Part shown: one piece after another, positions 24,851-41,648 of the stretch
Layout of the letters: each line of letters opens with the position of its first letter
Numbering within the stretch: the first letter of the stretch is position 1
DNA from: Actinomycetota bacterium
Lineage (GTDB): Bacteria; Actinomycetota; Actinomycetes; JAKEEW01
Direction: 5' to 3'
Assembly (NCBI GenBank): GCA_046725875.1
Contig: JBKOZJ010000114.1
Coordinates: 1 to 45,081, forward strand
DNA length: 45,081 nucleotides
Position numbers and translations under genes: made by a program
Notes under the pieces: model-generated
The model's database searches: none
What the model saw: only the letters and a program-made list of their open reading frames with translations
What the model was told of the DNA's origin: nothing

Positions 24851-25762
24851 ATGACCGAGCCGGGCAAAACCTCTCTGGCCAGCGCGGAGTCGGTCGAGGA
24901 CGTCCAACGGGCGCTTGCCGAGCAGGACTACCTCGCCGACCGAGGGCTGACGACCGCGGTCTTCCTTGCCCTGCGGATGGGCCGGCCTCTGTTCTGCGAG
25001 GGCGACGCCGGGGTAGGCAAGACAAGCGTCGCCGCCGCGATCGCGACCGCGCTCGGCGCACCCTTGATCCGGCTGCAGTGCTACGAGGGCATCGACGCGG
25101 CGCAGGCACTCTACGACTGGGACTTCCCGCGGCAGCTGCTGCACCTGCGCGCCGCGGAGGCCGCCGGCGTACACGACGCGGAGACGCTGGAAGCCGGCCT
25201 CTACGCCCGTCGATTCCTGCTGGCTCGGCCGTTGCTCGCCGCCCTGGAGACCGACCCTTGCGTGCTTCTCGTCGATGAGGTCGACCGCGCCGACGACGAG
25301 TTTGAGGCGTTTCTGCTCGAGGTCCTGTCTGACTTCACCGTGACCGTGCCCGAGCTCGGAACCATTCGCGCGCAGCGGCCACCGGTCGTCGTGCTCACGA
25401 GTAACAGGACCCGCGAGGTCCACGACGCACTCAAGCGCCGCTGCCTCTACCACTGGCTAGATCATCCGAGCATCGAACGTGAGGTGGCGATCATCCGGCG
25501 GCGACTGCCGGATGTGAGTGAGCGGCTGGCCGCCGACGTGGCTGCTGCCGTCGCGGTGTTGCGCGGCGGCGACCTGCTCAAGCCGCCGGGAGTGGCCGAG
25601 TCCATCGACTGGGCCAGCGCCTTGCGCACGCTTGGGGCGGAGCGGCTCGACTCGCTTGCCGCGGAGGCGACGCTGGGCGTCGTACTCAAGTATCGAGAGG
25701 ACCTCGAGCGAGTGCGCGGGAACGGGGTCGCCGCGCTGGCGATTGCCGCGGAGCCGTCATGA
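24851..25762 (+). CDS. MoxR-family AAA+ ATPase (CoxD-like)
   Basis: GDAGVGKT, RLQCYEGID, DEVDRADDEFEAFLLE, TSNRTREVHDALKRRC; TAGGCT at 24838 suggests a leaderless start. Confidence 0.94.
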   Translation: MTEPGKTSLASAESVEDVQRALAEQDYLADRGLTTAVFLALRMGRPLFCEGDAGVGKTSVAAAIATALGAPLIRLQCYEGIDAAQALYDWDFPRQLLHLRAAEAAGVHDAETLEAGLYARRFLLARPLLAALETDPCVLLVDEVDRADDEFEAFLLEVLSDFTVTVPELGTIRAQRPPVVVLTSNRTREVHDALKRRCLYHWLDHPSIEREVAIIRRRLPDVSERLAADVAAAVAVLRGGDLLKPPGVAESIDWASALRTLGAERLDSLAAEATLGVVLKYREDLERVRGNGVAALAIAAEPS

Positions 25763-26931
25763 CCCTGTTGGATGCGGGGGCGACCTCCCCGAGGTCGTCC
25801 GGGCTCGGAGCGATCGGTGACCTTGTGGCGTTCGGCCACCGGCTGCGCGCGGCCGGGGTTCCTGCCTCACCCGACCGCATCCAGGCCTTCGCCGCTGCCG
25901 TGGCAGCACTCGACCCGCTGGTCAGGGAGGACGTCTACTGGGCGGGCCGGCTCACCCTCTGCGGGGATCCGGACGACATCGCGCGTTTCGAGCAGGTCTT
26001 CCGGTTGTGGGTGTACGGGCCGGACGCGGGCTATCGGTTCTCTGGAGAGGTAACAGGTCTCCACCGACGGGATCGATCGGTTACCGACGTTGCCGCAGAC
26101 GCGGGCGGTCGGGGCGACGAGGACGGCGGCGGTGAGCGGCCGATCGGCCTTGCCGCCACCGACGTGGAGGTGCTCAGGCACCGTGACTACCCGCAGCTGT
26201 CAACGGCGGAGCGGGCCGAGGTTCGGCGGTTGATCGCCCTGCTCGACCCGGTTGGCCCGCCGCGGCGATCGCGGCGCTATCGGCCGGCTCGCCGCGGACC
26301 GCTGGATGCCCATCGGACAGTGCGCGCGATGCTCGCCCGCGGCGGGGAGCCGGCCAGACTGCGCCGCCGGCACCATGGCATCAAACCACGGCGGCTGGTG
26401 TTTCTCGTCGACGTGAGTGGCTCGATGGCCGCCTACTCCGACGCGCTGTTGCGAGTGGCTCACGCGGCGGTGCGCCGCCGTTTCGGAACCGAGGTCTTCA
26501 CGATGGGAACCCGGCTCACTCGGGTGACTCGAGAGCTGCGCCATCGGGATCCGGACCGGGCGCTCGCCGCGGCCGGGCGGGCCGTACCCGACTGGAGCGG
26601 CGGAACCCGGCTAGGCGAGCAGCTCAAGGCCTTCTGCGACCGATGGGGGCAGCGCGGGACCGCGCGCGGCGCGCTGCTGGTCGTCGCCAGTGACGGCTGG
26701 GAGCGTGGCGAGGCCCGCTTGCTCGGCGAGCAGATGGCCAGGCTGCGCCGGCTCGCGCATCGCGTCGTATGGGTTAACCCGCACGTGGCCAAGCCAGGCT
26801 TCGCGCCGTCGACGGCCGGCTTGCTGGCCGCGTTGCCGCACGTCGACGACATCCTCGCGGGCCACGATCTCGCGGCGTACGAGGAGTTGGCGCGTGTTCT
26901 GTCCACGAGGGTGAGGTCTTCCGATGCGTGA
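25759..26931 (+). CDS. VWA-domain protein (CoxE-like)
   Basis: DVSGSM MIDAS motif, GTRLTR, WSGGTR, SDGW, WVNP; ATGA overlap with the MoxR gene. Confidence 0.93.
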   Translation: MTLLDAGATSPRSSGLGAIGDLVAFGHRLRAAGVPASPDRIQAFAAAVAALDPLVREDVYWAGRLTLCGDPDDIARFEQVFRLWVYGPDAGYRFSGEVTGLHRRDRSVTDVAADAGGRGDEDGGGERPIGLAATDVEVLRHRDYPQLSTAERAEVRRLIALLDPVGPPRRSRRYRPARRGPLDAHRTVRAMLARGGEPARLRRRHHGIKPRRLVFLVDVSGSMAAYSDALLRVAHAAVRRRFGTEVFTMGTRLTRVTRELRHRDPDRALAAAGRAVPDWSGGTRLGEQLKAFCDRWGQRGTARGALLVVASDGWERGEARLLGEQMARLRRLAHRVVWVNPHVAKPGFAPSTAGLLAALPHVDDILAGHDLAAYEELARVLSTRVRSSDA

Positions 26932-28042
26932 CGTGCTCAACGAGGTAAAGGCGTGGTACGAGCAAGGAGTTGGTCTGGCCACGGTCGTCGGCACCTGGCA
27001 GAGTGCGCCCCGCCAACCCGGTGCGGCAATGGCGGTCTCGGCTTCCGGTGCGGCCGCCGGCAGCGTCTCCGGTGGTTGTGTGGAAGGCGCGGTCTACGAG
27101 GTCGCGCAGGAAGTCATGGCCACCGGCCGGCCGGCGCTGCAACGCTACGGGGTCAGCGACGACGATGCGATGGCGGTGGGACTGACCTGCGGCGGCATCA
27201 TCGACGTCTTCGTTCAGCCGGTGTCACCCGGGACATTTCCCGAGCTTCCGGCGATCGCGTCGGCAATCGAAGAGCACCGCCCGGTCGCGATCGCAACCGT
27301 GGTGTCAACCGAAGTCGGCGCCACGACGACGGCGCCCGCGGTCGGGTCCCGGGTGCTTGTCTGGTCGGATCGAGTTGACGGCTCGTTCGGCGTGGAGGGG
27401 CTGGATGTCGCGGTCGCGGACGACGCGCGCGGCATGCTCGGCACGGGCGTGACAGGTCTACGCCATTACGGCCCACACGGCGAGCGCCGCCGGGACGAGG
27501 TCGGCGTCTTCGTCGAGTCATACGCACCCCCGCCCCGGATGCTGGTGTTCGGGGCGATCGACTATGCGGCGGCGGTGGCCAGGATCGGCAAGTTCCTCGG
27601 CTACCGGGTGACCGTCTGTGACGCGCGGCCGATCTTTGCGACGAGGGCTCGCTTTCCCGACGCTGACGAGGTTGTCGTGGAGTGGCCGCACCGCTACCTT
27701 TCCCGCACCGCGGTGGACGGGCGCGCGGTCATCTGCGTGCTCACTCACGACCCCAAGTTCGATGTGCCGTTGCTGGAGGTTGCCCTGCGAACCCCGGCCG
27801 CGTACGTCGGCGCCATGGGTTCTCGGCGTACCCACGATGACCGGCTGGCCCGGCTGCGCTCGGCCGGGCTGTCGGACGAGGAGCTGGCCCGGCTTGCGTC
27901 GCCGATCGGCCTGGATATCGGTGCCCGGACGCCAGAGGAGACCGCGGTCTCCGTTGCTGCCGAGATCATCGCGCTGCAGTGGGCCGCGACCGGGCGCCGG
28001 CTCTCCGAGACCGAGGGCCGGATCCACGGATCGGCCTCCTGA
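26924..28042 (+). CDS. XdhC/CoxI family molybdoenzyme maturation factor
   Basis: SAPR, GSVSGGCVE, GLTCGG, THDPKFD, GAMGSRR, PIGLDIGARTPEETAVS. Confidence 0.94.
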   Translation: MRDVLNEVKAWYEQGVGLATVVGTWQSAPRQPGAAMAVSASGAAAGSVSGGCVEGAVYEVAQEVMATGRPALQRYGVSDDDAMAVGLTCGGIIDVFVQPVSPGTFPELPAIASAIEEHRPVAIATVVSTEVGATTTAPAVGSRVLVWSDRVDGSFGVEGLDVAVADDARGMLGTGVTGLRHYGPHGERRRDEVGVFVESYAPPPRMLVFGAIDYAAAVARIGKFLGYRVTVCDARPIFATRARFPDADEVVVEWPHRYLSRTAVDGRAVICVLTHDPKFDVPLLEVALRTPAAYVGAMGSRRTHDDRLARLRSAGLSDEELARLASPIGLDIGARTPEETAVSVAAEIIALQWAATGRRLSETEGRIHGSAS

Positions 28043-28105
28043 GGCGGCCGGTGTGAATGTGCCGTTCATGCGGGAGGGGCGAGGACCGAGGCGGGTCGGT
28101 GCGGC

Positions 28106-28687
28106 TTGAGTGACGTTGCCGGGCTGGTGCTCGCCGCTGGCGAGGGACGTCGGTTCGGCCGGCCGAAAGCACTGGTCGAGTTGGACGGCGAGCGGCTCGT
28201 GGATCGGGCGGTCCGGTTGCTCCGCGACGGCGGCTGCGCCCCGATCGTCGTCGTCAGCGGCGCGGCGCCGCTCGAGGTGGCGGGTGCTGATGTCTTCGAC
28301 AACCCCGACTGGAAGACAGGAATGGGCTCCTCGCTGCGGTGTGGTCTTGCCGCGCTTCCGGCCGAGTGCGGTGCGGCTGTCGTGGCGCTTGTCGACCAGC
28401 CGTACATCGGCTTGGAAGCGGTGCGACGCTTGGTGGATGCGTACAGGAAAGGTGCGCAGGCGGCGGTGGTGACCTACGGCGGCCAACGCCGCAACCCGGT
28501 GCTTCTCGCCCGCGATACGTGGCCAGCGGTCGCGGCACTGGCGACTGGCGACGTCGGTGCCCGCCGCTACATCGAGGCACGCCGCCAGGAAGTGGTCGAG
28601 GTGCCGGGCGATGGGACAGGAGATCCGCGCGACATCGACACCCCCGACGACCTGGCTACGGGAATCCGCAACGAGTGTCCGGGTTGA
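28106..28687 (+). CDS. MocA-like molybdenum cofactor cytidylyltransferase
   Basis: LAAGEGRRFG..K, NPDW..GMGSSL, LVDQP, NPV, GDVGAR, DIDTPDD. Confidence 0.9.
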   Translation: MSDVAGLVLAAGEGRRFGRPKALVELDGERLVDRAVRLLRDGGCAPIVVVSGAAPLEVAGADVFDNPDWKTGMGSSLRCGLAALPAECGAAVVALVDQPYIGLEAVRRLVDAYRKGAQAAVVTYGGQRRNPVLLARDTWPAVAALATGDVGARRYIEARRQEVVEVPGDGTGDPRDIDTPDDLATGIRNECPG

Positions 28688-28720
28688 TCCCGCGGGTTAT
28701 TGCGAGCCGGTCCGCAGTAA

Positions 28721-28867
28721 TCAGGAGCCCCGGGTTTCTTCGGCATGGCGGGCTTGCATGCCGGACATGGTCCGCAGCGGAAGCTCCCGCAGCGCCAGCG
28801 CCAGGAGGAAGCCGAGCATCGCAATCGCGGCGGCGATCAGGAACACCAGCTGCATAGCGGAGGCGAA
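28721..28867 (-). pseudogene. C-terminal remnant of a 14-TM DHA2/MDR-type MFS transporter
   Basis: FASAMQLVFLIAAAIAMLGFLLALALRELPLRT matches the last TM helix plus E.PLR tail of DHA2 exporters; rest of gene absent. Confidence 0.7.
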
Positions 28868-28935
28868 ACGACCCAGCGGCGTTTCGTCGCTTGGCTTTTC
28901 CAATTAAATGCTACGCAGGGCGGTACTCGTGCTGT

Positions 28936-30336
28936 TTAGGCGGTGTCGAATCCGGGAGCATGGGCGGCCAACGCGTCCAGCGCCTGCGTGAAACAGCTCA
29001 TTGGTGGCCGGACCAGCCCGGCGCCCACCTGACCCATCCCGGCTACCTTTCCGGCGATTCCCGTGTTGATCTGCGGGAGCAAGCCGGTGCGGACCACTCG
29101 GGTCACGTCGATCCCGACCGGCGTCCCTCGGAAACCGAGAATCGGAACCTGGTAGCGGGGGTGCTCGCCGAGCGTGATCTCGTACATCTCCCCGCTGGTT
29201 TGGACGGCGTCGCCCACCTCACCACCCACAAACCGCACAATTGCCGGTGCGGCGGCCATCGCAAAGCCACCGAGACCGCAGGTTTCGGTGATGGAGGAAT
29301 CGCCGATGTCCGGGTTCGCGTCCTCGGCACCGTAGGTGCCGAGATACAGCCCGTCGGGCACCGCGGCGGGCGCGGTGAACCAGGCATCGCCGCAGCCGGA
29401 CACTTGGACGCCGAAGTCGGTGCCGTTGCGTGCCATCGCCACAACGAGGGTCGACCCGGGCACGTCGCGTCCGGCGTCGAGGGCGAGCTTGCACGCGGTC
29501 ATGACCAGGTTGAGGAAGAAGTGGTCGTTGCCGCCGATGAACCGGGCAACGGCCGCGACGTCGCGGGGGGCCGCGGTGGACTCGACGAGGTGGGGGAGTA
29601 GGTCGCGGAGGAGCATCAGCGTGCCGGCGCGGTTCCGGTTGTGCCCTTCGTCGCCCATCTGGACCATCTGGGCGATCGTCGTGCTCACGTCGAACGGTCC
29701 GTGCCGTCGGATCGCATCTCGCAACAGCGGACCGAGTACCGAGGACATCCAGTCCAGGCGGTCGATCACATCGGGCGAGTAGGCGCCGTACCGCAGGACC
29801 TTCCCGAGCCCCTCGTTGAGCGAGCAGTAGGCCCGGCGGCCCGTCTCCGGATCCTCCACGATGAACATCCACATCGACGGGCTCACGACCCCGGCCATCG
29901 GTCCGACCGCCGCACGCTCGTGGCAGGTCGCGAGGGCAATCTCCGAGCCGAGGCGCTTCTCCGCTTCGGCCGCGGTGCCGGCCAGCCCCTCGAACAGGGT
30001 CGCGCCAATGAGCGCGCCGCGCAGCGGGCCGGATGCTCGCTCCCACGCGATCGGCGGTCCCGCATGTAGCAGCAGACCCGGCTCGAGGCGGAGCACGTCC
30101 CGGGCCGGCGCGAGGTCGACCAGATGCGCCCGCGCGGCGAGGATGCGCTCGAGCGCAGCCGCGTTCGCCACGCGCCGACGGGGGTCTGCCGCCACCCGAG
30201 CCAGGGCGGCTGGGTCACCGGTTGGGGGCCGCCAGTCGACCCGGGTGACGTCTACAGCTTGATTGGCCAGCGCGTCGGCGAGAAAGTCGGCGCCGGTTGC
30301 CACTACGCGCGGCGTCTCGTAGAGGAAACCGTGCAC
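28936..30336 (-). CDS. DUF1116 / YlbE (AllG-like oxamate carbamoyltransferase subunit)
   Basis: LLHAGPPI, GPMAGVVSPSM, NEGLGKVLRYGA, MGDEGHNRN, MARNG, DIGDSSITET, PQINTGIA. Confidence 0.92.
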   Translation of the reverse strand: MHGFLYETPRVVATGADFLADALANQAVDVTRVDWRPPTGDPAALARVAADPRRRVANAAALERILAARAHLVDLAPARDVLRLEPGLLLHAGPPIAWERASGPLRGALIGATLFEGLAGTAAEAEKRLGSEIALATCHERAAVGPMAGVVSPSMWMFIVEDPETGRRAYCSLNEGLGKVLRYGAYSPDVIDRLDWMSSVLGPLLRDAIRRHGPFDVSTTIAQMVQMGDEGHNRNRAGTLMLLRDLLPHLVESTAAPRDVAAVARFIGGNDHFFLNLVMTACKLALDAGRDVPGSTLVVAMARNGTDFGVQVSGCGDAWFTAPAAVPDGLYLGTYGAEDANPDIGDSSITETCGLGGFAMAAAPAIVRFVGGEVGDAVQTSGEMYEITLGEHPRYQVPILGFRGTPVGIDVTRVVRTGLLPQINTGIAGKVAGMGQVGAGLVRPPMSCFTQALDALAAHAPGFDTA

Positions 30337-30338
30337 CC

Positions 30339-31799
30339 TTATCGGACCTCCCCGGTGAGGAGGTCGATCGCGGCATTGACCGCCTCGGCATGGGATAGAA
30401 ACACCCGAACGCCCGCGTCGACCAGCAGGCTCGCCTGCGCCTCCAGATTCTGCGGATCGGCCCTGGTGCCCACGAGAGCCGCGACGACGGGCGGCACGAT
30501 GTCGCCGGTCTCCAGCGCGGCGTTTACGGCCTCAGAAATGGGGACTGCGGGTGACGGATGCGCGCCGTGGCCCAACAGGACATCGACCAGGACGACACCG
30601 GTGGCCGGATTAGCGAGGTCGCGCCGCAGCTGCTCGGCCCGCAAGGTCGGATCGATCATCGGGTGGGCGCGGCCGGCCGTGAAGCGGTCGTCGCCGAAAT
30701 CCGCTACCAGATGACCGAGGGCGCCGAGATCATCGACGGCAATCGCACCGAGGCGCGCGGTGGCGATGCCGACCGCCTCATCCCTCAGCGTGCCTCCCGA
30801 GTAGAGCCCGCGCAGCGCGCCGCTGCGCCTCGGCAGTGGCTCCGTGGGCATCCATCGGGCCCACATCGGCACCGCCCGACCGAACGCGGTAAGTACCGCG
30901 GTGGCAAGGGCGGTCAGGTCTGGATGGGCGGCGATGTCGTTGCCGGCTCGCCAGCCGTACAACACCGGCTTGGTCAGCCGTGCCGCGCGGTCCCGTACTC
31001 GCGCTGCCACAGCGGGATCCGCTGGCTTGGAGATGATCACAAGGAGTTCGGTAGCGGGATCGCTGTCCAGGAGCTCGAGTGCCCGCAGCGTCGAGATCCC
31101 GCCGACGCTTGCGGCGAGGTCACGACCTCCAACGCCCAGACAGTGGCTCACTCCGACGCCGGCGGCGTCGAGCAGGCACATGACCTGTTGTGCTCCGCTG
31201 CCGGATGCGGCGACGATCCCGACTGGACCGGGACGCACGACGTTCGCGAAGCCGAGGCCGACCCCGGCGACGACCGCAGTCCCGCAGTCGGGGCCCATGA
31301 CGAGCAGGCCACGCTGCTCGGCCTCGCCCTTCAGCCACACCTCCTGCTCGACGGGCATGTTGTCACTGAAGACCATCACGGGCAGCCCCGCGTCGAGCGC
31401 GTCCACGGCTTCGACGAAGGCGTGCCTTCCGGGAACCGAGACCATGGCGAGACTCACGCCATCGAGGGCGGTGATCGTGAGTCGGGCCGCCGGCATCTCC
31501 CCGGTCGCGGGCCCTGCCTTTCCGGCCGAACCAGGTTGGGCGAGCAGTTGGTCTAGGGCCCGCCGAGCTCGGTCCAGATCCGTCGCGTCGCCCACACTGA
31601 GGGCAACCACCAAGTCGTTCGGTCCTGCCCGGACAGGCCGGTCGAAGCCCATCGAGGCAAGCAGCTCGAGGTTGAGGTCGGTCCCCATCGCGACCAATGC
31701 CGCCGATACCCCTTCCAGTGCGGCGAGATCCCGGCTGGCCTGCATGAGAGCGACGGAGTCGCGGTATACGCCGGGGCGTACCTCGACGTAAGCGGTCAC
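30339..31799 (-). CDS. fdrA: FdrA / AllF-like protein (succinyl-CoA synthetase alpha-like fold)
   Basis: YRDSVALM, FSDN, MGPDCGT, GVGGRDL, ISKP, GGTL, HPMIDP motifs; GTG 31799 (alternative ATG 31862). Confidence 0.9.
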   Translation of the reverse strand: MTAYVEVRPGVYRDSVALMQASRDLAALEGVSAALVAMGTDLNLELLASMGFDRPVRAGPNDLVVALSVGDATDLDRARRALDQLLAQPGSAGKAGPATGEMPAARLTITALDGVSLAMVSVPGRHAFVEAVDALDAGLPVMVFSDNMPVEQEVWLKGEAEQRGLLVMGPDCGTAVVAGVGLGFANVVRPGPVGIVAASGSGAQQVMCLLDAAGVGVSHCLGVGGRDLAASVGGISTLRALELLDSDPATELLVIISKPADPAVAARVRDRAARLTKPVLYGWRAGNDIAAHPDLTALATAVLTAFGRAVPMWARWMPTEPLPRRSGALRGLYSGGTLRDEAVGIATARLGAIAVDDLGALGHLVADFGDDRFTAGRAHPMIDPTLRAEQLRRDLANPATGVVLVDVLLGHGAHPSPAVPISEAVNAALETGDIVPPVVAALVGTRADPQNLEAQASLLVDAGVRVFLSHAEAVNAAIDLLTGEVR

Positions 31800-31864
31800 G
31801 GCTTCGGAGACCTCGTGTTCTTCGCCCTGCAGGCCCGCGCCGGTGCCTGGCGGACCGGGCATGG

Positions 31865-32818: not shown

Positions 32819-33058
32819 CGGGGCACACCCCCATGAGGTTGGCTTCGCTCCATCTGCACCACCTCCCAGGCGGGCCCCGATTTCCTCGCCCTGCTGCGCG
32901 TCGCCCGAACGCAGCCGGCTAGGCTCTCGCTCGCCCACGCAGCGCTGCTACCCGGACTGGCCGCGGCTCGTGCGGATCGACGCGCAGTTCGCCGCTTGCA
33001 AAGGGCGAGTAAATCATCGGCCTCCCAGGCAAGCTAATGAGGGGAGTACCGTGCCCAC

Positions 33059-34705
33059 ATGGGCAAAGTTGCCAATGCTCCGGGCCAACCTTCGCTGGAG
33101 TTGCCAGGTCTGGGGACCGGTCTGACCGTCGCCGAGGTGTTGGAGCTTTCGTCGCTGAGCGGCTCGAAGGTGCTCGCCGGCGAGGCCGGCCTGAGCCGGA
33201 TCGTCCAGAAACTGAATGTGATGGAGGTCCCGGACATCCTGCCCTGGGTCAAGCCGAATGAGTTGATGCTGACGACCGGCTATCCGCTCCGGAACACGCC
33301 ACAGGATCTCGCTGATCTCATCGCCGATCTCGACGCGCGCGGCCTGGTAGCCATCGCGATCAAGCTTGGGCGTTATATCGACGAGTTGCCTGACGGAATG
33401 CTCGTCTCGGCAGACCGGCTGGGTTTCCCCGTGATCCGGCTCCCGGACACGGTCAGCTTCGACGATGTGCTCAACCAGGTTCTGACCGAGATCCTCAATC
33501 GGCAGGCGGCCGTTCTGGAACGGACGGAGCAGGTGCACCGCGCCCTGGTCCAGATCGTCCTCGAGGGCGGCGGACTGCAGGAGGTCGCCGACGAGCTGAC
33601 CCGCCTGTTGGGCGGACCGGTGTGCGTGACCAATCCGTCCGGACGGGTCCTCGCCGCGTCCGGCGAAGTCCCGTTGCAGGAGAGCGCTCTCCTCCAAGGC
33701 GGCGCCGGGCTCCGGCCCTATCGGGGCTCATCCGCGGCGGTGGCGCCGATCGTGGCGGGGTCATTCGACCACGGCCGGTTGGTCGCGCTCCCCGGCGATC
33801 ACGACCTTGGCTCGCAGGACGTGCACATCCTGGAGCGAGCCGCAACGGTGGCCGCGCTGGTGATCACAAAGCAGCTTGCGGTAAGTGCAGTCGAGAGCAA
33901 GTACCACGGTGACTTCCTGCGGGACGTTCTGTCCGGTCGCACCACCGAGGTGTCCCGGGTCGTGCAGCATGCCTCGTCTCTCGGGTGGGACCTCGACCGC
34001 CCACTCGCCGTCGTCGTCGCGGAGATCGACGGCGACGCCGCCAGCAGGGGCGCTCAGGACCGGCTCGCCAGTGCGTGGACCGGCGCGGTCCGGGCCAGGG
34101 ATCCACGGACCGCTGTGGTGGGCTACGCCAGCGAGGTAGCGGTGCTGCTTCCGGTCCCGATCGAAGCGCTCCAGCGCACCGTCCGCCAGCTTGCGAGCAC
34201 GGTCGCCGCCGATATGTCGGCGGTCAAACGAACATTCAGCACCGGTGGTAGCCGGGTCAGCTCCAGCCCGGCCGGGCTGCCCGAGGCCTATGAGCAGGCA
34301 CGCCAGGCCCTGCGGGTCGGCCGGCAGCTCCACGGCCCGGGCGCCGTCGCCATGTTCGACGAACTCGGTGTCTACCGGCTGCTCGCCCTGGTACCCGACG
34401 GTGCCGAACTTCGCTCATTTGTCCGAGAGACGCTTGGGCCACTGAGTGAGCAGGACGACAACGAAGCCCGTGACCTGCGTCGCACACTGCAGGTCCTGCT
34501 TGACACGAACCTCAACGTCGCGGAGACCGCTCGCACCCTGCATTTCCACTACAACACGTTGCGCTACCGAATCGGCAAGCTCGAGCGGATGCTCGGCTCC
34601 TTCACGACTGATCCGCACCTACGGCTCAACCTCGCGCTCGCGCTCCAGGTCGTGCACATGCGCGGAATCGGTGGACTCGCAGCTACCGAAGCCGGCCGGG
34701 CCTGA
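33059..34705 (+). CDS. PucR-family transcriptional regulator
   Basis: N-terminal PucR ligand domain (LAGEAGLSR..NVMEVPD...ELMLTTG), C-terminal HTH (NVAETARTLHFHYNTLRYRIGKLE). Confidence 0.94.
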   Translation: MGKVANAPGQPSLELPGLGTGLTVAEVLELSSLSGSKVLAGEAGLSRIVQKLNVMEVPDILPWVKPNELMLTTGYPLRNTPQDLADLIADLDARGLVAIAIKLGRYIDELPDGMLVSADRLGFPVIRLPDTVSFDDVLNQVLTEILNRQAAVLERTEQVHRALVQIVLEGGGLQEVADELTRLLGGPVCVTNPSGRVLAASGEVPLQESALLQGGAGLRPYRGSSAAVAPIVAGSFDHGRLVALPGDHDLGSQDVHILERAATVAALVITKQLAVSAVESKYHGDFLRDVLSGRTTEVSRVVQHASSLGWDLDRPLAVVVAEIDGDAASRGAQDRLASAWTGAVRARDPRTAVVGYASEVAVLLPVPIEALQRTVRQLASTVAADMSAVKRTFSTGGSRVSSSPAGLPEAYEQARQALRVGRQLHGPGAVAMFDELGVYRLLALVPDGAELRSFVRETLGPLSEQDDNEARDLRRTLQVLLDTNLNVAETARTLHFHYNTLRYRIGKLERMLGSFTTDPHLRLNLALALQVVHMRGIGGLAATEAGRA

Positions 34706-34772
34706 TCAGGAGCTTTATCACCGGTTGCGGGCCGGCCTGCCGCGCCGCCCGTGCGGCGGGGAGACAACGGAT

Positions 34773-34892
34773 TCCGTTGGAGGCTCGCCCACCACCTACG
34801 CCGAGAACATCGGCGTCATGGCGGCGATCAGGGTCTACTCCCGGCCCGCCGGGCCGAACCGTTGCCTGATCGGCATGGTCGCGGGGAGGATC
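34773..34892 (+). pseudogene. Remnant of an NCS2 (UraA/PyrP-type) nucleobase permease
   Basis: SVGGSPTTYAENIGVMAAIRVYS carries the NAT signature (E. coli UraA TTYGENIGVMAITRVYS); LIGMVAGRI follows 8 codons later; no flanking permease sequence. Confidence 0.85.
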
Positions 34893-34930
34893 ACCAGGGT
34901 GAGGTTGAGGATGAGGGCGGGCGGCGCCAC

Positions 34931-35836
34931 GTGAAGCCGGCACCGTTCGGCTATTACACACCGGCGACCGTGGACGAGGCGCTGGATGTCCTCTCGCAGA
35001 CCGAGGGGAAGGTGCTGGCGGGCGGGCAGAGCCTGATCCCGATCCTCAACATGAGGCTGGCCGAGCCACCGGACCTTGTCGACATCAACCGCTTGGACGA
35101 GCTGTCGTACATCAGTAACGAAAACAGCGGGATCCGAATCGGCGCGCTTGCCCGGCACAGTGAGGTAGAGCGCGACGCGGAAACGGCAGGCCGGCTCCCG
35201 CTGCTAAGGCAGGCGCTGCGCCTGGTCGCGCATCCGGTGATCCGCAATCGGGGAACCGTGGTCGGCAGCCTCGTTCACGCGGATCCGGCGGCCGAACTCC
35301 CGGCAGTTCTTGCGCTCCTCGGCGGGTCGGCGACCCTCGCGCGCCGTGGCGGGGCCCCGCGCACGGTGCCCGCGTCCGACTTCTTCTTGGGGCCGCTCGA
35401 GTCCGCGACCAAGCCGGGTGAGCTGGCAGTTTCCGCCTCCTTCCCGATTCCGGCCGGGCAGGTCGGCACCGACGTTACTGAGGTCTCCCGACGCCATGGT
35501 GACTTCGCCTTGGCTGGTGTGGCAACGCTGGTCGCGGCCGGCGCAGGAGGCGTGGTCGAGCGGGCCCGGGTTGCGTGCTTCGGCGTCGGACCGATCCCGG
35601 TCGTGGTCGACGTCACGGAGGCTGTTCGGGGCGTCGCCCGCGGTACATCGCCCGGAAACGGTTGGTCCGCCGCCGTCGACCTCGTCCGCGCTGCGGTTGA
35701 CCCGGACGACGACATCCACGCCACTGCCGCTTACCGACGCCATCTGGTTGGGGTGCTCGCCGCCCGGTCGTTCCGCACTGCCTTGTCCCGCGCCCAGGCG
35801 GCATCCGCAGACGACACCCGAGGGGAGCAGCAGTGA
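34931..35836 (+). CDS. Molybdenum hydroxylase FAD-binding subunit (CoxM/CutM-like)
   Basis: KPAPFGY, AGGQSL, IRNRGTVVGS, HADPAAE, RRHGDFA, DDIHATAAYR; GTG 34931. Confidence 0.94.
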   Translation: MKPAPFGYYTPATVDEALDVLSQTEGKVLAGGQSLIPILNMRLAEPPDLVDINRLDELSYISNENSGIRIGALARHSEVERDAETAGRLPLLRQALRLVAHPVIRNRGTVVGSLVHADPAAELPAVLALLGGSATLARRGGAPRTVPASDFFLGPLESATKPGELAVSASFPIPAGQVGTDVTEVSRRHGDFALAGVATLVAAGAGGVVERARVACFGVGPIPVVVDVTEAVRGVARGTSPGNGWSAAVDLVRAAVDPDDDIHATAAYRRHLVGVLAARSFRTALSRAQAASADDTRGEQQ

Positions 35837-36429
35837 TGTCGAATACCTGGTGGGGAGGACCCCAGACCGCCGCGACGTCAAGTACCGCGGGGGGACCCAC
35901 CTCGGCCGCTGCGCCCATCGGCGTCGCGGCGGGCGAGCGGATCGACGTCACCGTCACCGTCAACGGTGCCCGCCGAGCAGCACGCGTCGAGACACGCCGG
36001 CTGCTCTCCGACTTCGTCCGCCACGATCTGGGCCTGACCGGGACGCACGTCGGCTGCGAGCACGGCGTCTGCGGGTGCTGCACGGTCTTGCTCGACGGCC
36101 AACCGGTCCGCTCCTGCCTCATGCTCGCGGCCACCGCGGACGGTCACGAGATAACGACGGTGGAGGGCTTGGCCGCGCCGGACGGCGAGCTGAGCCCGGT
36201 GCAGCAGGCCTTCATCGAGTGCCACGGGCTGCAATGCGGCTTCTGCACGCCGGGCTTCCTCACGGCTGTGACCGCCCTGCTCGCCGAGAACCCGGCGCCG
36301 ACCGACGACGAGATCCTCGAAGGGATCTCCGGAAACCTGTGCCGGTGCACCGGCTACCAGAACATCCGCGCCGCGGTCCGGCGTGCGGCGGAGCTTGCGG
36401 CGGGAAGACGTGAAGGCGGCGGTTCGTGA
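35833..36429 (+). CDS. Molybdenum hydroxylase 2Fe-2S subunit (CoxS/CutS-like)
   Basis: GCEHGVCGCCTV..SC, QCGFCTPG, NLCRCTGY. Confidence 0.95.
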   Translation: MMSNTWWGGPQTAATSSTAGGPTSAAAPIGVAAGERIDVTVTVNGARRAARVETRRLLSDFVRHDLGLTGTHVGCEHGVCGCCTVLLDGQPVRSCLMLAATADGHEITTVEGLAAPDGELSPVQQAFIECHGLQCGFCTPGFLTAVTALLAENPAPTDDEILEGISGNLCRCTGYQNIRAAVRRAAELAAGRREGGGS

Positions 36430-38858
36430 CCACCCGGATGTTCGGTGCGCCGGTACAGCGCCGGGAGGATCCCCGCCTGGTCGTTGGCGAGGGACGGTAC
36501 GTCGACGACCTAGCGCCTACCGGCGCCCTCGCCGCCGCCTTTGTACGGAGCCCGCACGCCGAAGCGCAGATCGTAGACGTGGATGTAGGTAATGCGGTAG
36601 ACGTTCCTGGCCTGGTCGCGATCTATACGTATGACGACCTGGATGGTCGGCTAACCGAACCGCTGCCGCTTCTCATCCCGCATCCCTCGCTGACCCATCC
36701 GCGCACCGGTTACCCACTCGCGAAAGACGCGGTGCATCACGTCGGCGAGGCGGTCGCGATGGTGGTGGCCACGGACCGCTACGCGGCCGAGGATGCGGCT
36801 GAACGGATTCGGATCTCGTACGACCCGCGGCCGGCCGTGGTCGGCGTCGCGGCGGCACGGCGAGCCGAGCACCTCGTCCACGAGGACGTCCCGGGAAACG
36901 TCGCCGCACATCACGTCGAGCAGAACGGCGACGTCGATGCCGCGCTCGGCGCTGCACCGTATGTGCTCGACCTAGACCTCACCGTGGAGCGCTCCGCTTC
37001 CATGCCGTTGGAGGGCCGCGGTGTGGTCGCTCGGTGGGAGCCGGACGAGACCCTCCGGGTCTATTCGGCGACTCAGACGTCGACCAGCGTGCGGGCGGCG
37101 CTGGCCGCCAAGCTCGAACTGCCGCTCGACAAGGTAGAGGTCATTGCGCCGAATGTCGGCGGTGGATTCGGTGTGAAGATCGTCCACCCGTGGCCCGAGG
37201 AGGTGCTTGTCCCGTGGGCGGCGCGCCGTCTCGGTCGGCCGGTCACTTGGACCGAAGACCGGCGCGAGCACTTCATCGCGGCCGCGCATGAGCGTGAGCA
37301 GGAGCATCACGTCACCGTCGGCTTCGACGCCGAGGGCCGGATCCTCGGCCTCGACGTCAAGGTCTGGCACGACAATGGCGCCTACACGCCATATGGCGTA
37401 ATTGTGCCGATCATCACTTCGACGCAGCTGCTGGGCCCGTACAAGCCGGGCGCATATCGGGCGGAGTGGTGGAGCCTCTACACCTCGACCGTCATCGTCA
37501 CTCCTTACCGCGGAGCCGGCCGCCCACAGGGCGCGTTCGCCATGGAACGAGCGGTGGACGCGATCGCGGACTACCTCGGTCTGGACCGGACGGAGGTGCG
37601 GGTGCGCAACTTCATCCAGCCCAGCGAGATGCCTTACGACCAAGGCCTCACCTTCCAGGACGGGCGACCGCTGATCTACGACTCGGGCGACTATCCGGCA
37701 CTGCTCGAGAAGCTCAAGAAGCTCGTCGGGTGGGACGACTTCGAGACCTTCCGCGAGCAGGCCCGCGCCGACGGACGCCGGGTCGGCATCGGCATCGGCT
37801 GTTATGTGGAGGGCACCGGCGTCGGGCCGTACGAGGGCGGGCACGTGCTCGTCGAGCCGAGTGGCCGTGTGCGGGCGGCGACCGGGCTCACCAGCCAGGG
37901 GCAGGGGCACCAGACGATGCTCGCGCAGATCGTTGCGGACGAGCTTGGGGTGCCGTTCTCGGACGTCGACGTCGTGACCGGGGACACCCGGCGGTTCCGC
38001 TACGCCGTCGGCACCTTCGCGTCTCGTACCGCCGTGATGAGCGGCAACGCGGTGGCCCTCGCCGCGCGTGCGGTGCGGGCGAAGGCGCTGCGGATCGCTG
38101 GGGAGGCGCTCGAGGTCGACCCGGCCGACCTCGAGCTCATCGACGGCGTCATCTCGGTTCGGGGCAACCCGCAGGCACAGATCGCGTTGTCGACCGTTGC
38201 GGTGCTCGCCAACCCACTGCGTTATGCCTTCGACGAGGCGGCGCGGGCGGCGACGCAGTTCGCCGGGGCGGACGTGAGCCGGCCACCGGTCGAGGACGAC
38301 GATGAGCCTGGTCTCGAGGCGACGGACTACTACTCGCCGGTGCGGTCGACGTTCGCCGCCGGCATACACGCCGCCGTCGTGGACACCGACCCGGAGACCG
38401 CGGAGATCCGCGTCCTCAGGTACTGCGTGATTCACGATTGCGGCCGAGTCGTCAACCCGCGAATTCTCGAGGGCCAGATCCACGGCGGCGTGGCGCAGGG
38501 CATTGGGGGCGCGCTCTACGAACGGATGGCGTACGACGAGCATGGCCAGCTGCTCAACGCCTCCTTCATGGACTTCCTTATGCCGTATGCAACCGAGGTG
38601 CCGCTGGTCGAGATCGACCACATGGAAACGCCGTCGCCGCTAAACCTGCTGGGCATCAAGGGCGCGGGTGAAGCCGGGGTCATCCCGGGAATGGCCGTGC
38701 TGGCCTCGGCGATCGAAGACGCGGAGGGAATCGTCATCAACAGGATGCCGATGTCGCCGTCCGAGCTGTTCCACCTGCGGGAGCGCGCGGCCCGTGGCGA
38801 GGTGCCTCTTCTGCGCCGGGTTTCTGGGAGCCATGACAGCGGAGGGGAGTCGCGATGA
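36426..38858 (+). CDS. Molybdenum hydroxylase large subunit (xanthine oxidase family, CoxL form II-like)
   Basis: GGGFGVK, PYRGAGRP, GQGH, GTFASR, QIHGGVAQG, KGAGE motifs. Confidence 0.95.
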   Translation: MTTRMFGAPVQRREDPRLVVGEGRYVDDLAPTGALAAAFVRSPHAEAQIVDVDVGNAVDVPGLVAIYTYDDLDGRLTEPLPLLIPHPSLTHPRTGYPLAKDAVHHVGEAVAMVVATDRYAAEDAAERIRISYDPRPAVVGVAAARRAEHLVHEDVPGNVAAHHVEQNGDVDAALGAAPYVLDLDLTVERSASMPLEGRGVVARWEPDETLRVYSATQTSTSVRAALAAKLELPLDKVEVIAPNVGGGFGVKIVHPWPEEVLVPWAARRLGRPVTWTEDRREHFIAAAHEREQEHHVTVGFDAEGRILGLDVKVWHDNGAYTPYGVIVPIITSTQLLGPYKPGAYRAEWWSLYTSTVIVTPYRGAGRPQGAFAMERAVDAIADYLGLDRTEVRVRNFIQPSEMPYDQGLTFQDGRPLIYDSGDYPALLEKLKKLVGWDDFETFREQARADGRRVGIGIGCYVEGTGVGPYEGGHVLVEPSGRVRAATGLTSQGQGHQTMLAQIVADELGVPFSDVDVVTGDTRRFRYAVGTFASRTAVMSGNAVALAARAVRAKALRIAGEALEVDPADLELIDGVISVRGNPQAQIALSTVAVLANPLRYAFDEAARAATQFAGADVSRPPVEDDDEPGLEATDYYSPVRSTFAAGIHAAVVDTDPETAEIRVLRYCVIHDCGRVVNPRILEGQIHGGVAQGIGGALYERMAYDEHGQLLNASFMDFLMPYATEVPLVEIDHMETPSPLNLLGIKGAGEAGVIPGMAVLASAIEDAEGIVINRMPMSPSELFHLRERAARGEVPLLRRVSGSHDSGGESR

Positions 38859-39499
38859 AGGTGACCGGCAGCGCGATCCTGAGCGCGCCGCGCGATCGTG
38901 TGTGGGCGGCGCTTAACGACCCGGCGGTGCTCGTGCGGACGATCCCCGGCTGCCAGCGGCTCGAGGCGGTCGGACCAGACGACTACCGCATGACGGTCAG
39001 CGCGGGCGTGGCGTCCATCAAAGGCGTGTACGACGGTGAAGTCCGGCTATCCGACCAGCGGCCACCGGAGGCTTTTGTACTGAAGGCCCGCGGCGCCGGC
39101 GGTCCCGGAACGGTCGACGCGACCGCCCGCGTCACGCTCACCGAGGACGGTGACCAGACCCAGGTCTCTTACAACGCGGACGCCATCGTCGGCGGCATGG
39201 TCGCGGGCGTGGGCCAGCGCATGCTAACGGCCGTGGCGAAGCGGACGGCGGGTGAGTTCTTCGCCAACGTCGATGACGTCCTGGGCGGCCGCGCGCCGGG
39301 CGGTGTGACTGAGGAGTTGCCGGCAGGAGTCGCGGCAGCAGGCCAGCCGGTGACGACGCAGACCCCGAGCGCCGGCGTCTACGTAGCACCACCGAAGGCG
39401 CGGCAGCTCGCTTCGCCCGCGCTCATCCTCGGTTCCGCCGTGGTCGGTGCCATCATCGCGCTGGTAGGAGTATGGGTCGGCTGGGCCCTGGCGTCCTAG
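38855..39499 (+). CDS. CoxG / SRPBCC protein with C-terminal membrane anchor
   Basis: VWAALNDPAVL..TIPGC, GGMVAGVGQR, hydrophobic C-terminal helix. Confidence 0.9.
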   Translation: MKVTGSAILSAPRDRVWAALNDPAVLVRTIPGCQRLEAVGPDDYRMTVSAGVASIKGVYDGEVRLSDQRPPEAFVLKARGAGGPGTVDATARVTLTEDGDQTQVSYNADAIVGGMVAGVGQRMLTAVAKRTAGEFFANVDDVLGGRAPGGVTEELPAGVAAAGQPVTTQTPSAGVYVAPPKARQLASPALILGSAVVGAIIALVGVWVGWALAS

Positions 39500-39592
39500 C
39501 GACGTCCCCCAGATCACCGCCCATTGCAAAAGAGAGGCGCATCTTCCTTCTCGAAGTGGCGAGGTTGCCTCCGCAGGTACTGGCCGCCTTGA

Positions 39593-40541
39593 TGCCGTAA
39601 CGACCCGCTCTTCCCGAATGGCCTCAACGACATCAACCCCGTCCCGGCATTGCAGTTCGGCGAGACGGCGATCGACCTGACGAAGGCAGGTGTCTTCCCC
39701 ACGGGAACGTGCGCGGCCTTCGGAAGCGCGATGGTGAGGAGCCGCTCCGCGGCGTCGTTCACTTCGGAGATCAAGGACTTCATCGCCCCGATCCCGGTGA
39801 ACATCTCCAACTGCGGCAACGTCAACATCATCAAGCACACCGACCCGAGGGGAGTCAACCAGAACTTCAGTTACACATCGACTATTCCGAACCCGGCGAA
39901 CCCGAACGCCAATCCGCGCACGCCGCAATGCTCGAACGACGCGACGCCGTCTGGCTTCACCCTGAACGACCACGCGGGTGTCGACCCGTCGCCGATCACC
40001 GGCACGGACAACACCGAGCACTGCACGAACGTGCCGGCGGGGAGCTACACCGTCACGGAGAGCACCCCGCTGCCGGCCAACTTCGTGTTGGAGAGCCTCA
40101 CCTGTACGGCAGACAACGGCGGGAGCGGCAGCCAGGATGCCACCAACCAGTACCAACTCGAACACGGTCACGACCGATTCGAACGGCACCGCCTGTGTTG
40201 ACGGTCTCGCGTTCGGCACCTACACGGTCACCGAGACGCAGGCACCGCCGGGATTCGTCATCGACGACACAACCGGCCACCCGGTGACGGTCGATAACAA
40301 TGCGCTGTGCAGCGACAATCCATATGTGGGTGAGACAACCTCCTTCACCGACACCCCGACCGCGGACATCCAGGTGAACTTCCGCGACGGTGGCTCAGGT
40401 GAGACGAGCGGGACGATCACCTGTGACAACACGACGGGTACCGGCGACAACACTCCCGCAACGGGTTGGGAGACCTCCCGGACCGTCACCGGGGTGCACG
40501 CACCCACCACCGTCACCTGCACCATCGTCATCGACCCGTGA
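39593..40541 (+). pseudogene. 5'-truncated, frameshifted Thr/Asn-rich surface protein with SpaA/prealbumin-like Ig modules
   Basis: Frame A (to ~40156): FGETAIDL...KDFIAP...NVPAGSYTVTE; frame B (~40155-40541): TTDSNGTACVDGLAFGTYTVTETQAPPGF; in-frame stop at 39590, no start or signal peptide. Confidence 0.75.
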
Positions 40542-40572
40542 GGCTAGCTGACCAACCGTGAGGTGGGTGATC

Positions 40573-40612
40573 AACAGAGAGGGCCCCGCGACCGGCGGGG
40601 CCCTCTCCTGTT
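40573..40612 (+). terminator. Intrinsic terminator-like hairpin
   Basis: aacagagagggccccgc-gaccg-gcggggccctctcctgtt, ~30 nt after the 40541 stop. Confidence 0.8.
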
Positions 40613-40742
40613 CGTCGCGCTGCACCGTTTGACCCTGATTGGTCCACATGTCGGTCTCAATGCTGACCTTTCCGCGAAGTTCCTTACCACTTGATGATCT
40701 ATTGGACTTGACGCCTCGGTAGTCCGGGCATTCGCTGGGTAA

Positions 40743-41648
40743 ATGACGCCGAGCCAGCCGCTCACAGCGGCCGCGGTGCAGGTCGCAGCGAGACCAGGAC
40801 CGCTCACCGCGGAGACTGTTAAGACGAACCTCGACAACGCGGTCGGATGGGTCGAGCGATGCGTGGACTCGAGCGGAGCCGAGCTTGTTGTGCTCCCGGA
40901 GTCCTGCACGACCGGATTCACGCCCGCTCTCTCGCCCGAAGACCTATGGGATGTCGTCACCGAGGTTCCGGGTCCGGTCAGCGAGCCGATGCAGGAAGCA
41001 GCCCGCCGGCTCGGCGCCCACCTGTGCTATGGGACGTACGAGCGGGGCGACCGGCGCGGTGTCGTGTACAACACCGCACTGCTAATAGGTCCGTCGGGGG
41101 AAATCCTCTCCTCGTACCGGAAGACCCACCTCTACAGCGGAGAGTCGGTCGCGAGCGGTGGTTGGGTCACGCCAGGCGATACGGTGGCGGTGGCAGACAC
41201 ACCGTTCGGCCGGATCGGGACGGTGATCTGCTTCGACGGTGACTATCCGGAACTCGCCCGGATCCAGGCGGTCCGGGGGGCGGCCATCCTGCTCCGCCCG
41301 TCCGCGCTGCTGCGGTCTGCTGACATCTGGGAGCTCACGACCCGAGCCCGGGCGTATGACAACCACGTCTTCGTCATTGCGGCGAACGCGGTCGGCACCG
41401 ACCCGGCCGGCACCCTCTACTTCGGGAACTCGCTCATCGTCACCCCCACCGCAGAGGTCGTCGCCCGCGGTACGACCCATGAGGGTTGGGTCAGCGCCCG
41501 GATCGATCCGGCGACCGCGATGAGCACACTGAGTCCCGGGTCCAGCCAGCCGCAGCGGTTCGACCACCTCGCCGACCGCAACGTCGCTCTCTACGAGCGG
41601 TATGTCGATGACCTTATCCGTCCCGCCCGCCACGCCTTTGGCCGTTAG
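40743..41648 (+). CDS. Carbon-nitrogen hydrolase (nitrilase-family amidase)
   Basis: Glu-Lys-Cys triad: LPES, YRKTHL, ICFD; RARAYDN, GNS. Confidence 0.93.
   Translation: MTPSQPLTAAAVQVAARPGPLTAETVKTNLDNAVGWVERCVDSSGAELVVLPESCTTGFTPALSPEDLWDVVTEVPGPVSEPMQEAARRLGAHLCYGTYERGDRRGVVYNTALLIGPSGEILSSYRKTHLYSGESVASGGWVTPGDTVAVADTPFGRIGTVICFDGDYPELARIQAVRGAAILLRPSALLRSADIWELTTRARAYDNHVFVIAANAVGTDPAGTLYFGNSLIVTPTAEVVARGTTHEGWVSARIDPATAMSTLSPGSSQPQRFDHLADRNVALYERYVDDLIRPARHAFGR

Follow-up and report, generated by a model that had tools for sequence, protein, structure and literature searches.

The 45,081-bp window analysed here is the whole of contig C114 from a metagenome-assembled genome (MAG; G000) of an Actinomycetota bacterium. 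At 24851-41648 it carries genes for a three-subunit molybdenum hydroxylase (CoxM, CoxS, and CoxL), its maturation proteins, three proteins related to AllF, AllG, and AllH of Escherichia coli, a PucR-family regulator, and a nitrilase-family amidase. From gene content and gene association we conclude that the window probably contains the greater part of a two-locus system for the oxidative catabolism of uracil and thymine that would release no urea and would conserve energy. The other locus, a barbiturase gene beside a carbamate kinase gene, is on contig C117 of the same MAG. A sequence-only reading of the window had proposed a pyrimidine pathway of this kind, and every genomic test available to us supports that proposal.

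Results

Barbiturase and carbamate kinase are encoded side by side on a second contig

The sequence-only reading stated that barbiturase and carbamate kinase are not encoded in the window and should be sought in the rest of the genome. The MAG has 3.76 Mb in 197 contigs and is estimated to be 89% complete; both genes were found in it, adjacent to each other on C117. A search of the MAG for the AtzD/TrzD/barbiturase family returned a single gene, at C117:7467-8570 on the minus strand. Its product (EC 3.5.2.1) scores 585 bits against the solved structure named barbiturase (PDB 5HWE) and 317 bits against the best cyanuric acid hydrolase (6BUM), and in the alignment about three quarters of its residues are, by eye, identical to those of the solved barbiturase. 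The protein also passes the NCBIfam model for cyanuric acid amidohydrolase (478.9 bits, cut-off 360). We rejected a cyanuric acid hydrolase identity because the PDB comparison favours barbiturase.

Immediately upstream of the barbiturase gene, on the same strand, are genes for carbamate kinase and for a family-III CoA-transferase that is truncated at the end of the contig. The kinase gene lies directly next to barbiturase in five of the six genomes first examined, and the sixth (G147) has it after AllG. The two genes also abut in 17 of 20 further genomes, and in two of the other three a contig end is close by. Because carbamate kinase, a catabolic enzyme here, needs carbamoyl phosphate, and no other transcarbamylase was seen in the annotated stretches of these clusters, the AllFGH-like trio of the window is the only candidate source seen there. 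Among the same 20 genomes, a family-III CoA-transferase is near barbiturase in 12 and a fused AccD/AccA-type carboxyltransferase, with weak matches to malonate decarboxylase beta and methylmalonyl-CoA decarboxylase alpha, in eight. The presence of these two enzymes suggests that the end product is malonate, which would be disposed of via malonyl-CoA. Five of the 20 (L127, L140, L141, L142, L128) have an ATP-dependent HydA/HydB pair of the hydantoinase/oxoprolinase type in or next to the operon; in L127 it lies directly before the carbamate kinase gene, with the match ends approximately 12 bp apart. Our MAG has HydA/HydB orthologues on another contig (C115:13489-18576). Across the genomes we saw no complementarity between HydA/HydB and the amidase.

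At the start of C117 (1-2089; L004), 5 kb from the barbiturase operon, are an allantoinase gene cut at the contig start (TIGR03178, 389.9 bits, cut-off 357.85) and an allantoicase gene. Purine and pyrimidine ring catabolism thus appear to be neighbours in this genome. Neither a urease alpha subunit nor an Ldh_2/AllD-type ureidoglycolate dehydrogenase (PF02615) was found in the genome at its estimated 89% completeness.

The cluster is co-inherited with barbiturase

We searched 301 genomes of the same class with four proteins (AllG, barbiturase, CoxL, and the amidase), calling orthologues at identities of at least 57% for AllG, 70% for barbiturase, and 68% for CoxL. Orthologues of these three are present in 64, 63, and 62 genomes, respectively. 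All three occur together in 59 genomes, none of the three occurs in 234, and eight genomes have a partial set. These tallies include four unpublished genomes (G012, G020, G029, G041); without them the counts are 57 with all three, 233 with none, and 7 partial of 297. About one in five of the sampled genomes carries the system. Six of the eight partial genomes are 75-91% complete (G002, G020, G042, G043, G094, G176), G157 has AllG in pieces, and G147 has a different hydroxylase. Where a family is only partly positive, the same genomes are positive for all three proteins (8 of 15 in f3, 10 of 14 in f12, 12 of 14 in f17, and 3 of 8 in f19). A CoxL orthologue is present in 60 of the 63 barbiturase genomes.

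For gene context we collected AllG relatives from one genome per species, which gave 581 loci, and made counts on the best 80 of these with flanks of ±10 kb. The 80 loci are mostly from Nocardioides, Streptosporangiaceae, Micromonosporaceae, Jiangella, Pseudonocardia, and unnamed Actinomycetota MAGs. Among the 55 that are full length, CoxL is beside AllG in 47, CoxM in 50, the permease in 36, and PucR in 38. Each of the maturation genes is found in only 6-8 of the 55, so these are not a fixed part of the cluster. The sequence-only reading had left it to such a survey whether orthologous clusters keep company with barbiturase or with allantoin genes, and the outcome favours barbiturase. This enzyme has an orthologue in 61 of the 64 AllG-positive genomes, while an allantoinase or allantoicase gene is within 10 kb of AllG in 1 of the 80 loci. 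Ten relatives from several families have the same genes in the same arrangement around the AllG orthologue. CoxMSL is on the fetched stretch in six of these, the stretch being cut by contig or stretch ends in the other four.

AllG and CoxL are on the same contig in 46 genomes, and in 45 of these, across many families of the class, no more than 15 kb separates the two. This arrangement is far from chance. The exception, G111, has CoxL and the amidase within 20 kb of barbiturase and 1.7 Mb from AllG. When the amidase and CoxL share a contig they are always within 15 kb (33/33, median 3.2 kb); the amidase sits just beyond the 10-kb flank, so that the ±10-kb counts are uninformative for it. AllG and barbiturase share a contig in 30 cases, with a median distance of 36 kb and 28 cases within 100 kb. 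Only 2 of the 80 AllG loci have barbiturase inside the 10-kb flanks, and the two loci are therefore loosely linked and do not form one operon. We rejected a barbiturase gene inside the cluster as the general arrangement, G147 and G077 being exceptions. AllG orthologues with 68-69% identity were also seen on short contigs of MAGs labelled Spirochaetaceae and Gemmatimonadota (L072, L098), which could reflect binning contamination or horizontal transfer.

A compact cluster has a different hydroxylase in the same slot

G147 has the system in one 12-kb stretch with two divergent gene sets. One strand encodes an NCS2 permease, barbiturase, and the FAD, FeS, and molybdopterin subunits of an enzyme like xanthine dehydrogenase (XDH) that is 28% identical to the CoxL of the window. 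The other encodes AllH, AllF, AllG, a 140-residue open reading frame (ORF), and carbamate kinase. No orthologue of the window CoxL was found in G147. Since the XDH-like enzyme is not orthologous to CoxL, two unrelated molybdenum hydroxylases fill the same slot beside barbiturase, which is what one would expect if the slot serves to make barbiturate from uracil. The 140-residue ORF (L027 1431-1853) has no family match.

Gene content of the window

The window has a G+C content of approximately 69%. Its first 24 kb are filled by housekeeping genes (pyrD, pyrF, SNF2 helicase, metK, priA, def, fmt, rsmB, rpe, and ribD/E/BA/H) in an order that is typical of actinobacteria. Protein families in the cluster that follows were called with Pfam and NCBIfam models:

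24851-25762, plus strand: AAA+ maturation ATPase, CoxD/MoxR/MadB-like (PF00004/PF07728; NF047784 MadB 271.7 bits, under the cut-off of 475)
25759-26931, plus strand: VWA CoxE-like maturation protein (PF05762 VWA_CoxE, 183 bits)
26924-28042, plus strand: XdhC/CoxI-family chaperone for molybdenum cofactor insertion (PF13478 150.9 bits, PF02625 115.7 bits)
28106-28687, plus strand: MocA-like molybdenum cofactor cytidylyltransferase (PF12804 129 bits; TIGR03310 MocA 103.8 bits, under the cut-off)
28875-28891, plus strand: terminator-like hairpin between the convergent MocA and AllG genes, the sole such site in 28000-42500 and weak evidence, as shuffles averaged 4.3 sites
28936-30336, minus strand: AllG-like (DUF1116) subunit of the proposed ureidomalonate carbamoyltransferase (PF06545, 311.5 bits)
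30339-31862, minus strand: AllF/FdrA-like subunit (PF00549; NF004760 FdrA 376.6 bits, under the cut-off of 433)
31865-32938, minus strand: AllH-like (DUF2877) subunit (PF11392 81 bits, residues 224-345; the ORF start may be over-called)
32939-33058, no strand: divergent intergenic region between the allH-like gene and pucR, presumed from the sequence to be the control region
33059-34705, plus strand: PucR-family transcriptional regulator (PF07905, PF17853, PF13556)
34752-34850, plus strand: remnant of an NCS2 permease of the RutG/UraA type, approximately 33 codons (tblastn to the permeases of relatives)
34931-35836, plus strand: CoxM-type FAD subunit (PF00941, PF03450; ORF open from 34751, likely start GTG 34931)
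35833-36429, plus strand: CoxS-type [2Fe-2S] subunit (PF01799, PF00111)
36426-38858, plus strand: CoxL-type molybdopterin subunit, form II, of the proposed uracil/thymine hydroxylase (PF01315/PF02738/PF20256)
38855-39499, plus strand: CoxG (SRPBCC) accessory protein (PF06240, 90.4 bits)
40743-41648, plus strand: nitrilase-superfamily (CN_hydrolase) amidase, the proposed malonamate amidase (PF00795, 163.8 bits)

The gene list of the sequence-only reading is borne out by these models, all of its genes being present and intact. It comprised a three-subunit enzyme of the xanthine oxidase family with CoxG and maturation genes (here CoxM-S-L-G with AAA, VWA-CoxE, XdhC, and MocA), a divergent DUF2877-FdrA-DUF1116 trio (on the minus strand, with PucR divergent from it), and a nitrilase-family amidase. 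The AAA+ gene is kept beside the cluster in relatives of the same family. No sigma-70-like consensus was found in the divergent region at 32939-33058. The FAD domain of CoxM begins at residue 65 of the long ORF, which crosses the permease remnant in a different frame, and GTG 34931 is probably the true start.

CoxG and the amidase are separated by a 1.2-kb insert (39500-40742), where relatives have a gap of approximately 80-300 bp. The insert is a frameshifted, start-less fragment of a surface protein with the SpaA/prealbumin fold; it has a lower G+C content (0.65) and is unique in the genome. This rules out the stretch at 39.5-40.7 kb as the site of the permease scar.

The cluster permease is of the uracil type

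The sequence-only reading had noticed a scar of a UraA-type permease. The scar is real and lies between PucR and CoxM. Its approximately 33 residues align at 68-79% identity with residues ~297-348 of the NCS2 permeases that relatives have in the same position (G001, G024, G022; tblastn E ~1e-6). An NCS2 permease gene stands between PucR and CoxM in five relatives (G001, G008, G022, G024, G033). Four full-length permeases from relatives score 322-389 bits against RutG, 246-294 against uracil permease, and 160-174 against xanthine permease (pbuX). NCS2 genes were among those that the reading had asked to be looked for in the neighbourhoods of relatives, and judging by these scores the cluster in relatives includes a pyrimidine-type transporter that resembles RutG and uracil permease and not xanthine permease. 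Two genomes of the same family as our MAG (G003, G005) have a gene like those of MpaB/Lcp-family oxygenases in the PucR-CoxM slot (L019 17930-19117; L024 7581-8573), and in G003 the slot also holds a phage-integrase fragment.

CoxL resembles N-heterocycle hydroxylases more than CO dehydrogenase

The molybdopterin, FAD, and 2x[2Fe-2S] subunits of a heterotrimeric L/M/S hydroxylase are encoded together with XdhC and MocA. The solved structures nearest to CoxL are those of 6-hydroxypseudooxynicotine dehydrogenase (Kdh, 7DQX, 457 bits) and quinoline 2-oxidoreductase (Qor, 1T3Q, 449 bits); CO dehydrogenases score 357-380 bits and Rhodobacter capsulatus XDH 156 bits. The window enzyme shares with Qor and Kdh the L/M/S architecture and, with that branch, a cofactor gene of the type used for molybdopterin cytosine dinucleotide (MocA) and maturation genes of the CoxD/E/XdhC type. 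It differs from them in that its CoxL belongs to a distinct clade labelled aerobic CO dehydrogenase and in that its pyrimidine substrate is only proposed.

The active-site loop of CoxL is PYRGAGR, which is that of form II. In the alignment to CO dehydrogenase (1N5W), where query position 61 corresponds to chain residue 385, CoxL has Gly at residue 388. We take residue 388 of CO dehydrogenase to be the copper-binding Cys and the form I loop to be AYXCSFR. CoxL scores 439.4 bits against the curated equivalog model TIGR02416, well below its cut-off of 991. On the basis of the loop and this score we rejected a CO dehydrogenase identity. CoxL does reach 1465 bits (cut-off 950) against NF040766, named 'aerobic carbon-monoxide dehydrogenase large subunit', but this 'grp5' model is an 'exception' model of unstated experimental basis. 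Most names among the best 120 CoxL homologues are also carbon-monoxide dehydrogenase; the others are generic ('CO/xanthine dehydrogenase', 'xanthine dehydrogenase family', 'molybdopterin-dependent oxidoreductase') and none is uracil dehydrogenase. The naming of this clade (homologues P0005-P0123) as CO dehydrogenase is probably a systematic misannotation.

The AllFGH-like trio

The FdrA, DUF1116, and DUF2877 families are encoded by three adjacent minus-strand genes. Their products are 39% identical to E. coli FdrA, 49% to YlbE, and 34% to YlbF, the last over the C-terminal 128 residues, and the FdrA-like subunit remains under the cut-off of its family model. In E. coli, AllF-AllG-AllH is an oxamate (oxamic) carbamoyltransferase that acts with the carbamate kinase AllK/YbcF (PMC11326118). 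The two systems are alike in having three subunits of the same families encoded in one operon and coupled to a catabolic carbamate kinase, and the proposed chemistry, phosphorolysis of an N-carbamoyl amide, is also the same. In our MAG this kinase is encoded outside the operon, beside barbiturase, and in G147 its gene follows directly on AllG and the short ORF. The three genes run H-F-G in the window but F-G-H in E. coli, and the partners are barbiturase, a molybdenum hydroxylase, and a uracil-type permease here and AllB/C/D/E in E. coli. The proposed substrate, ureidomalonate, is one CH2 longer than oxalurate. The genomic context of the E. coli type, with AllD and allantoin genes, was not found for the cluster: the genome, at 89% completeness, has no PF02615 match and allantoin genes are near AllG in the single locus mentioned above.

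DUF1116 proteins occur in at least three other contexts in the class: (i) with AllH, AllF, carbamate kinase, and an ABC transporter, (ii) with glutamine-synthetase-like genes, and (iii) in a lyase/DUF7714/AIRS cluster, which our MAG has on contig C13. Family membership therefore does not fix the substrate. According to a 2025 metagenomic study, allFGHK genes lie beside biuret/triuret genes in nitrifiers and are read as serving oxalurate degradation (PMC12625717).

On C13 (L005 7131-18053; L008 3675-8327) a second FdrA-like gene forms an operon with a second carbamate kinase gene, and an AllG paralogue that is 42-44% identical to the window AllG is approximately 12 kb away. The surroundings encode a radical SAM protein, an AIR-synthase-like protein, DUF7714, two lyases of the fumarase/ASL type, and a PLP enzyme. 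Comparable gene groups that also include AllH, Pyr_redox_2, and ComA are found in G071, G033, G091, and G067. Short AllG paralogues (~41% identity) stand beside one or two glutamine-synthetase-like genes and transporters in L147 and L148 (G134) and in L149 (G221).

The amidase

The amidase reaches no NCBIfam cut-off, its best matches being at most 105 bits against cut-offs of 249-500. Among the solved structures nearest to it are those of two omega-amidases, Nit2 of mouse (2W1V, 107.6 bits) and YLR351C of yeast. Its translation contains the motifs LPES, YRKTHL, and ICFDG, which presumably hold the Glu-Lys-Cys triad of nitrilases. The protein thus has the CN_hydrolase fold and the Glu/Lys/Cys motifs in common with Nit2/Nit3 (2W1V, 1F89), but the similarity is limited to approximately 107 bits and no curated cut-off. 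The substrates of omega-amidases are monoamides of dicarboxylic acids, a class that includes malonamate. An orthologue of the amidase is present in 43 of the 301 genomes, 42 of which also have one or more of AllG, barbiturase, and CoxL.

Discussion

Proposed pathway

The oxidative pathway of pyrimidine degradation has been known biochemically since the 1950s. The uracil/thymine dehydrogenase, barbiturase, and ureidomalonase of Rhodococcus erythropolis JCM 3132 were reportedly described by Soong et al. in 2001 and 2002. This strain, in which barbiturase and ureidomalonase were characterised, is also known as CCM2595, and its genome is public (PMC3961730). To our knowledge, barbiturase is the only enzyme of this pathway that has a gene, the dehydrogenase and ureidomalonase being without one. 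A full-text search, in which most subscription journals were not covered, found no literature associating barbiturase with either AllFGH or carbamate kinase, and none in which uracil dehydrogenase or ureidomalonase is given a gene.

In the pathway that we propose, an NCS2 permease of the RutG/UraA type would import the base; in this MAG its gene has been deleted and only the scar is left. CoxMSL(G), matured by the AAA, VWA, XdhC, and MocA proteins, would hydroxylate the base at C6 to give barbiturate or 5-methylbarbiturate, and the C117 barbiturase would open the ring to give ureidomalonate. The AllF/AllG/AllH-like trio would then phosphorolyse ureidomalonate to malonamate and carbamoyl phosphate, mirroring the conversion of oxalurate to oxamate in E. 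coli. Carbamate kinase would convert carbamoyl phosphate to ATP, CO2, and NH3, and the amidase, where present, would hydrolyse malonamate to malonate and NH3. The family-III CoA-transferase, in relatives together with the fused carboxyltransferase, may dispose of malonate via malonyl-CoA, and PucR may control the divergent operons. The steps are assigned by homology and gene association, from which we infer the substrates and products after barbiturase. We hold the exact role of the amidase less firmly than the pathway as a whole.

As a comparison, R. erythropolis JCM 3132 also has barbiturase, an oxidative hydroxylation of uracil at entry, and an end product at the level of malonate, but the gene content here points to carbamoyl phosphate, ATP, and two NH3 and not to urea. 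With this difference, the route proposed here would be either a variant of the R. erythropolis pathway or parallel to it.

Several observations weigh against the pathway. In R. erythropolis, a hydrolytic ureidomalonase releases urea and malonate (PMC3758960, PMC4051656). Barbiturase is usually 18-90 kb from the cluster and not inside it, and the 59 genomes with all three proteins come from a sample whose members are related and not independent, so that we give no statistic for co-occurrence. At 49% identity to YlbE, AllG is compatible with a retained oxalurate specificity, and it ranks closer to YlbE than the second paralogue of the genome does (40%). An orthologue of the amidase is present in only 37 of 57 complete systems, and none was found in f3 (15 genomes sampled) or in those six genomes of genus g81 (f51) that carry the cluster; the malonamate amidase role is therefore the weakest link. 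Finally, neither an intact NCS2 permease of the type found in the cluster nor an orthologue of the fused carboxyltransferase was found in our MAG at its estimated completeness.

Alternative explanations

The alternative that survives best, although we consider it unlikely, is that the late roles are swapped. The nitrilase-family protein would then be the orphan ureidomalonase, forming urea and malonate, or a decarbamoylase, and the trio and carbamate kinase would serve a parallel or different ureido substrate, for example in a thymine-derived branch. This would account for the urea-releasing, gene-less ureidomalonase described for R. erythropolis (PMC3758960, PMC4051656). It is also in keeping with the carbamoylases and beta-ureidopropionase among the solved nitrilase-superfamily homologues of the amidase and with the position of the amidase gene beside CoxL whenever both are on one contig. 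However, the carbamate kinase found at barbiturase in 17 of 20 genomes needs carbamoyl phosphate, for which the trio is the only candidate source seen. In addition, about a third of the carriers are without the amidase, and no urease that could use the urea was found in the genome.

It is very unlikely that the window serves purine/allantoin catabolism under PucR, with the molybdenum enzyme as an XDH and the trio as an oxamate carbamoyltransferase whose substrate is oxalurate. In favour of this, PucR-type regulators take their name from purine catabolism, AllG is 49% identical to E. coli YlbE, and C117 carries allantoinase and allantoicase genes. But CoxL scores 156 bits against R. capsulatus XDH versus 449-457 against Qor and Kdh, the permease resembles RutG and uracil permease and not pbuX, and the AllD/Ldh_2 enzyme that would make oxalurate was not found in the genome (89% complete). 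The neighbourhood data also favour barbiturase (61 of 64 AllG-positive genomes) over allantoin genes (1 of 80 loci). We rejected the purine/oxalurate explanation on permease type, the affinities of CoxL, the failure to find AllD, and co-occurrence.

A substrate other than uracil or thymine, such as another cyclic ureide or a triazine-like compound (cyanuric acid, alloxan, or other hydroxypyrimidines), is very improbable indeed. It would fit the match of the C117 enzyme to the cyanuric acid amidohydrolase model and the position of AllFGHK beside biuret/triuret genes in nitrifiers (PMC12625717); however, the ring opener is far closer to barbiturase than to cyanuric acid hydrolase (585 versus 317 bits), cyanuric acid requires no hydroxylase, and the permease is of the uracil type.

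That the molybdenum enzyme is an aerobic CO dehydrogenase and a mere neighbour of an unrelated nitrogen-catabolic operon is hardly credible: the NF040766 score, the names of most homologues, and the CoxD/E/G-type accessory genes favour it, but the PYRGAGR loop with Gly at residue 388, the low TIGR02416 score, the tight co-inheritance with barbiturase and AllG in 59 genomes, and the replacement of CoxL by an XDH-type enzyme in G147 argue against it.

Implications

Returning to the uracil/thymine pathway, a broader claim is that the CoxL clade, annotated as 'form II CO dehydrogenase', is the orphan uracil/thymine dehydrogenase (EC 1.17.99.4). It would be part of a complete, ATP-yielding, and urea-free fourth route of pyrimidine degradation with barbiturase, an AllFGH-type carbamoyltransferase, carbamate kinase, and a malonamate amidase. 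We regard the case for this broader claim as evenly balanced. The cluster offers candidate genes for uracil/thymine dehydrogenase and for the fate of ureidomalonate. If the claim is true, one widespread 'form II CoxL' clade would have a physiological role and a large share of the marker genes for aerobic CO oxidation in Actinomycetota would in fact encode hydroxylases of nucleobases, a point of relevance to surveys of CO-oxidising organisms. The AllFGH family would gain a second substrate, and pyrimidine rings would yield ATP at the substrate level. It would also explain how actinobacteria that lack urease recover both ring nitrogens.

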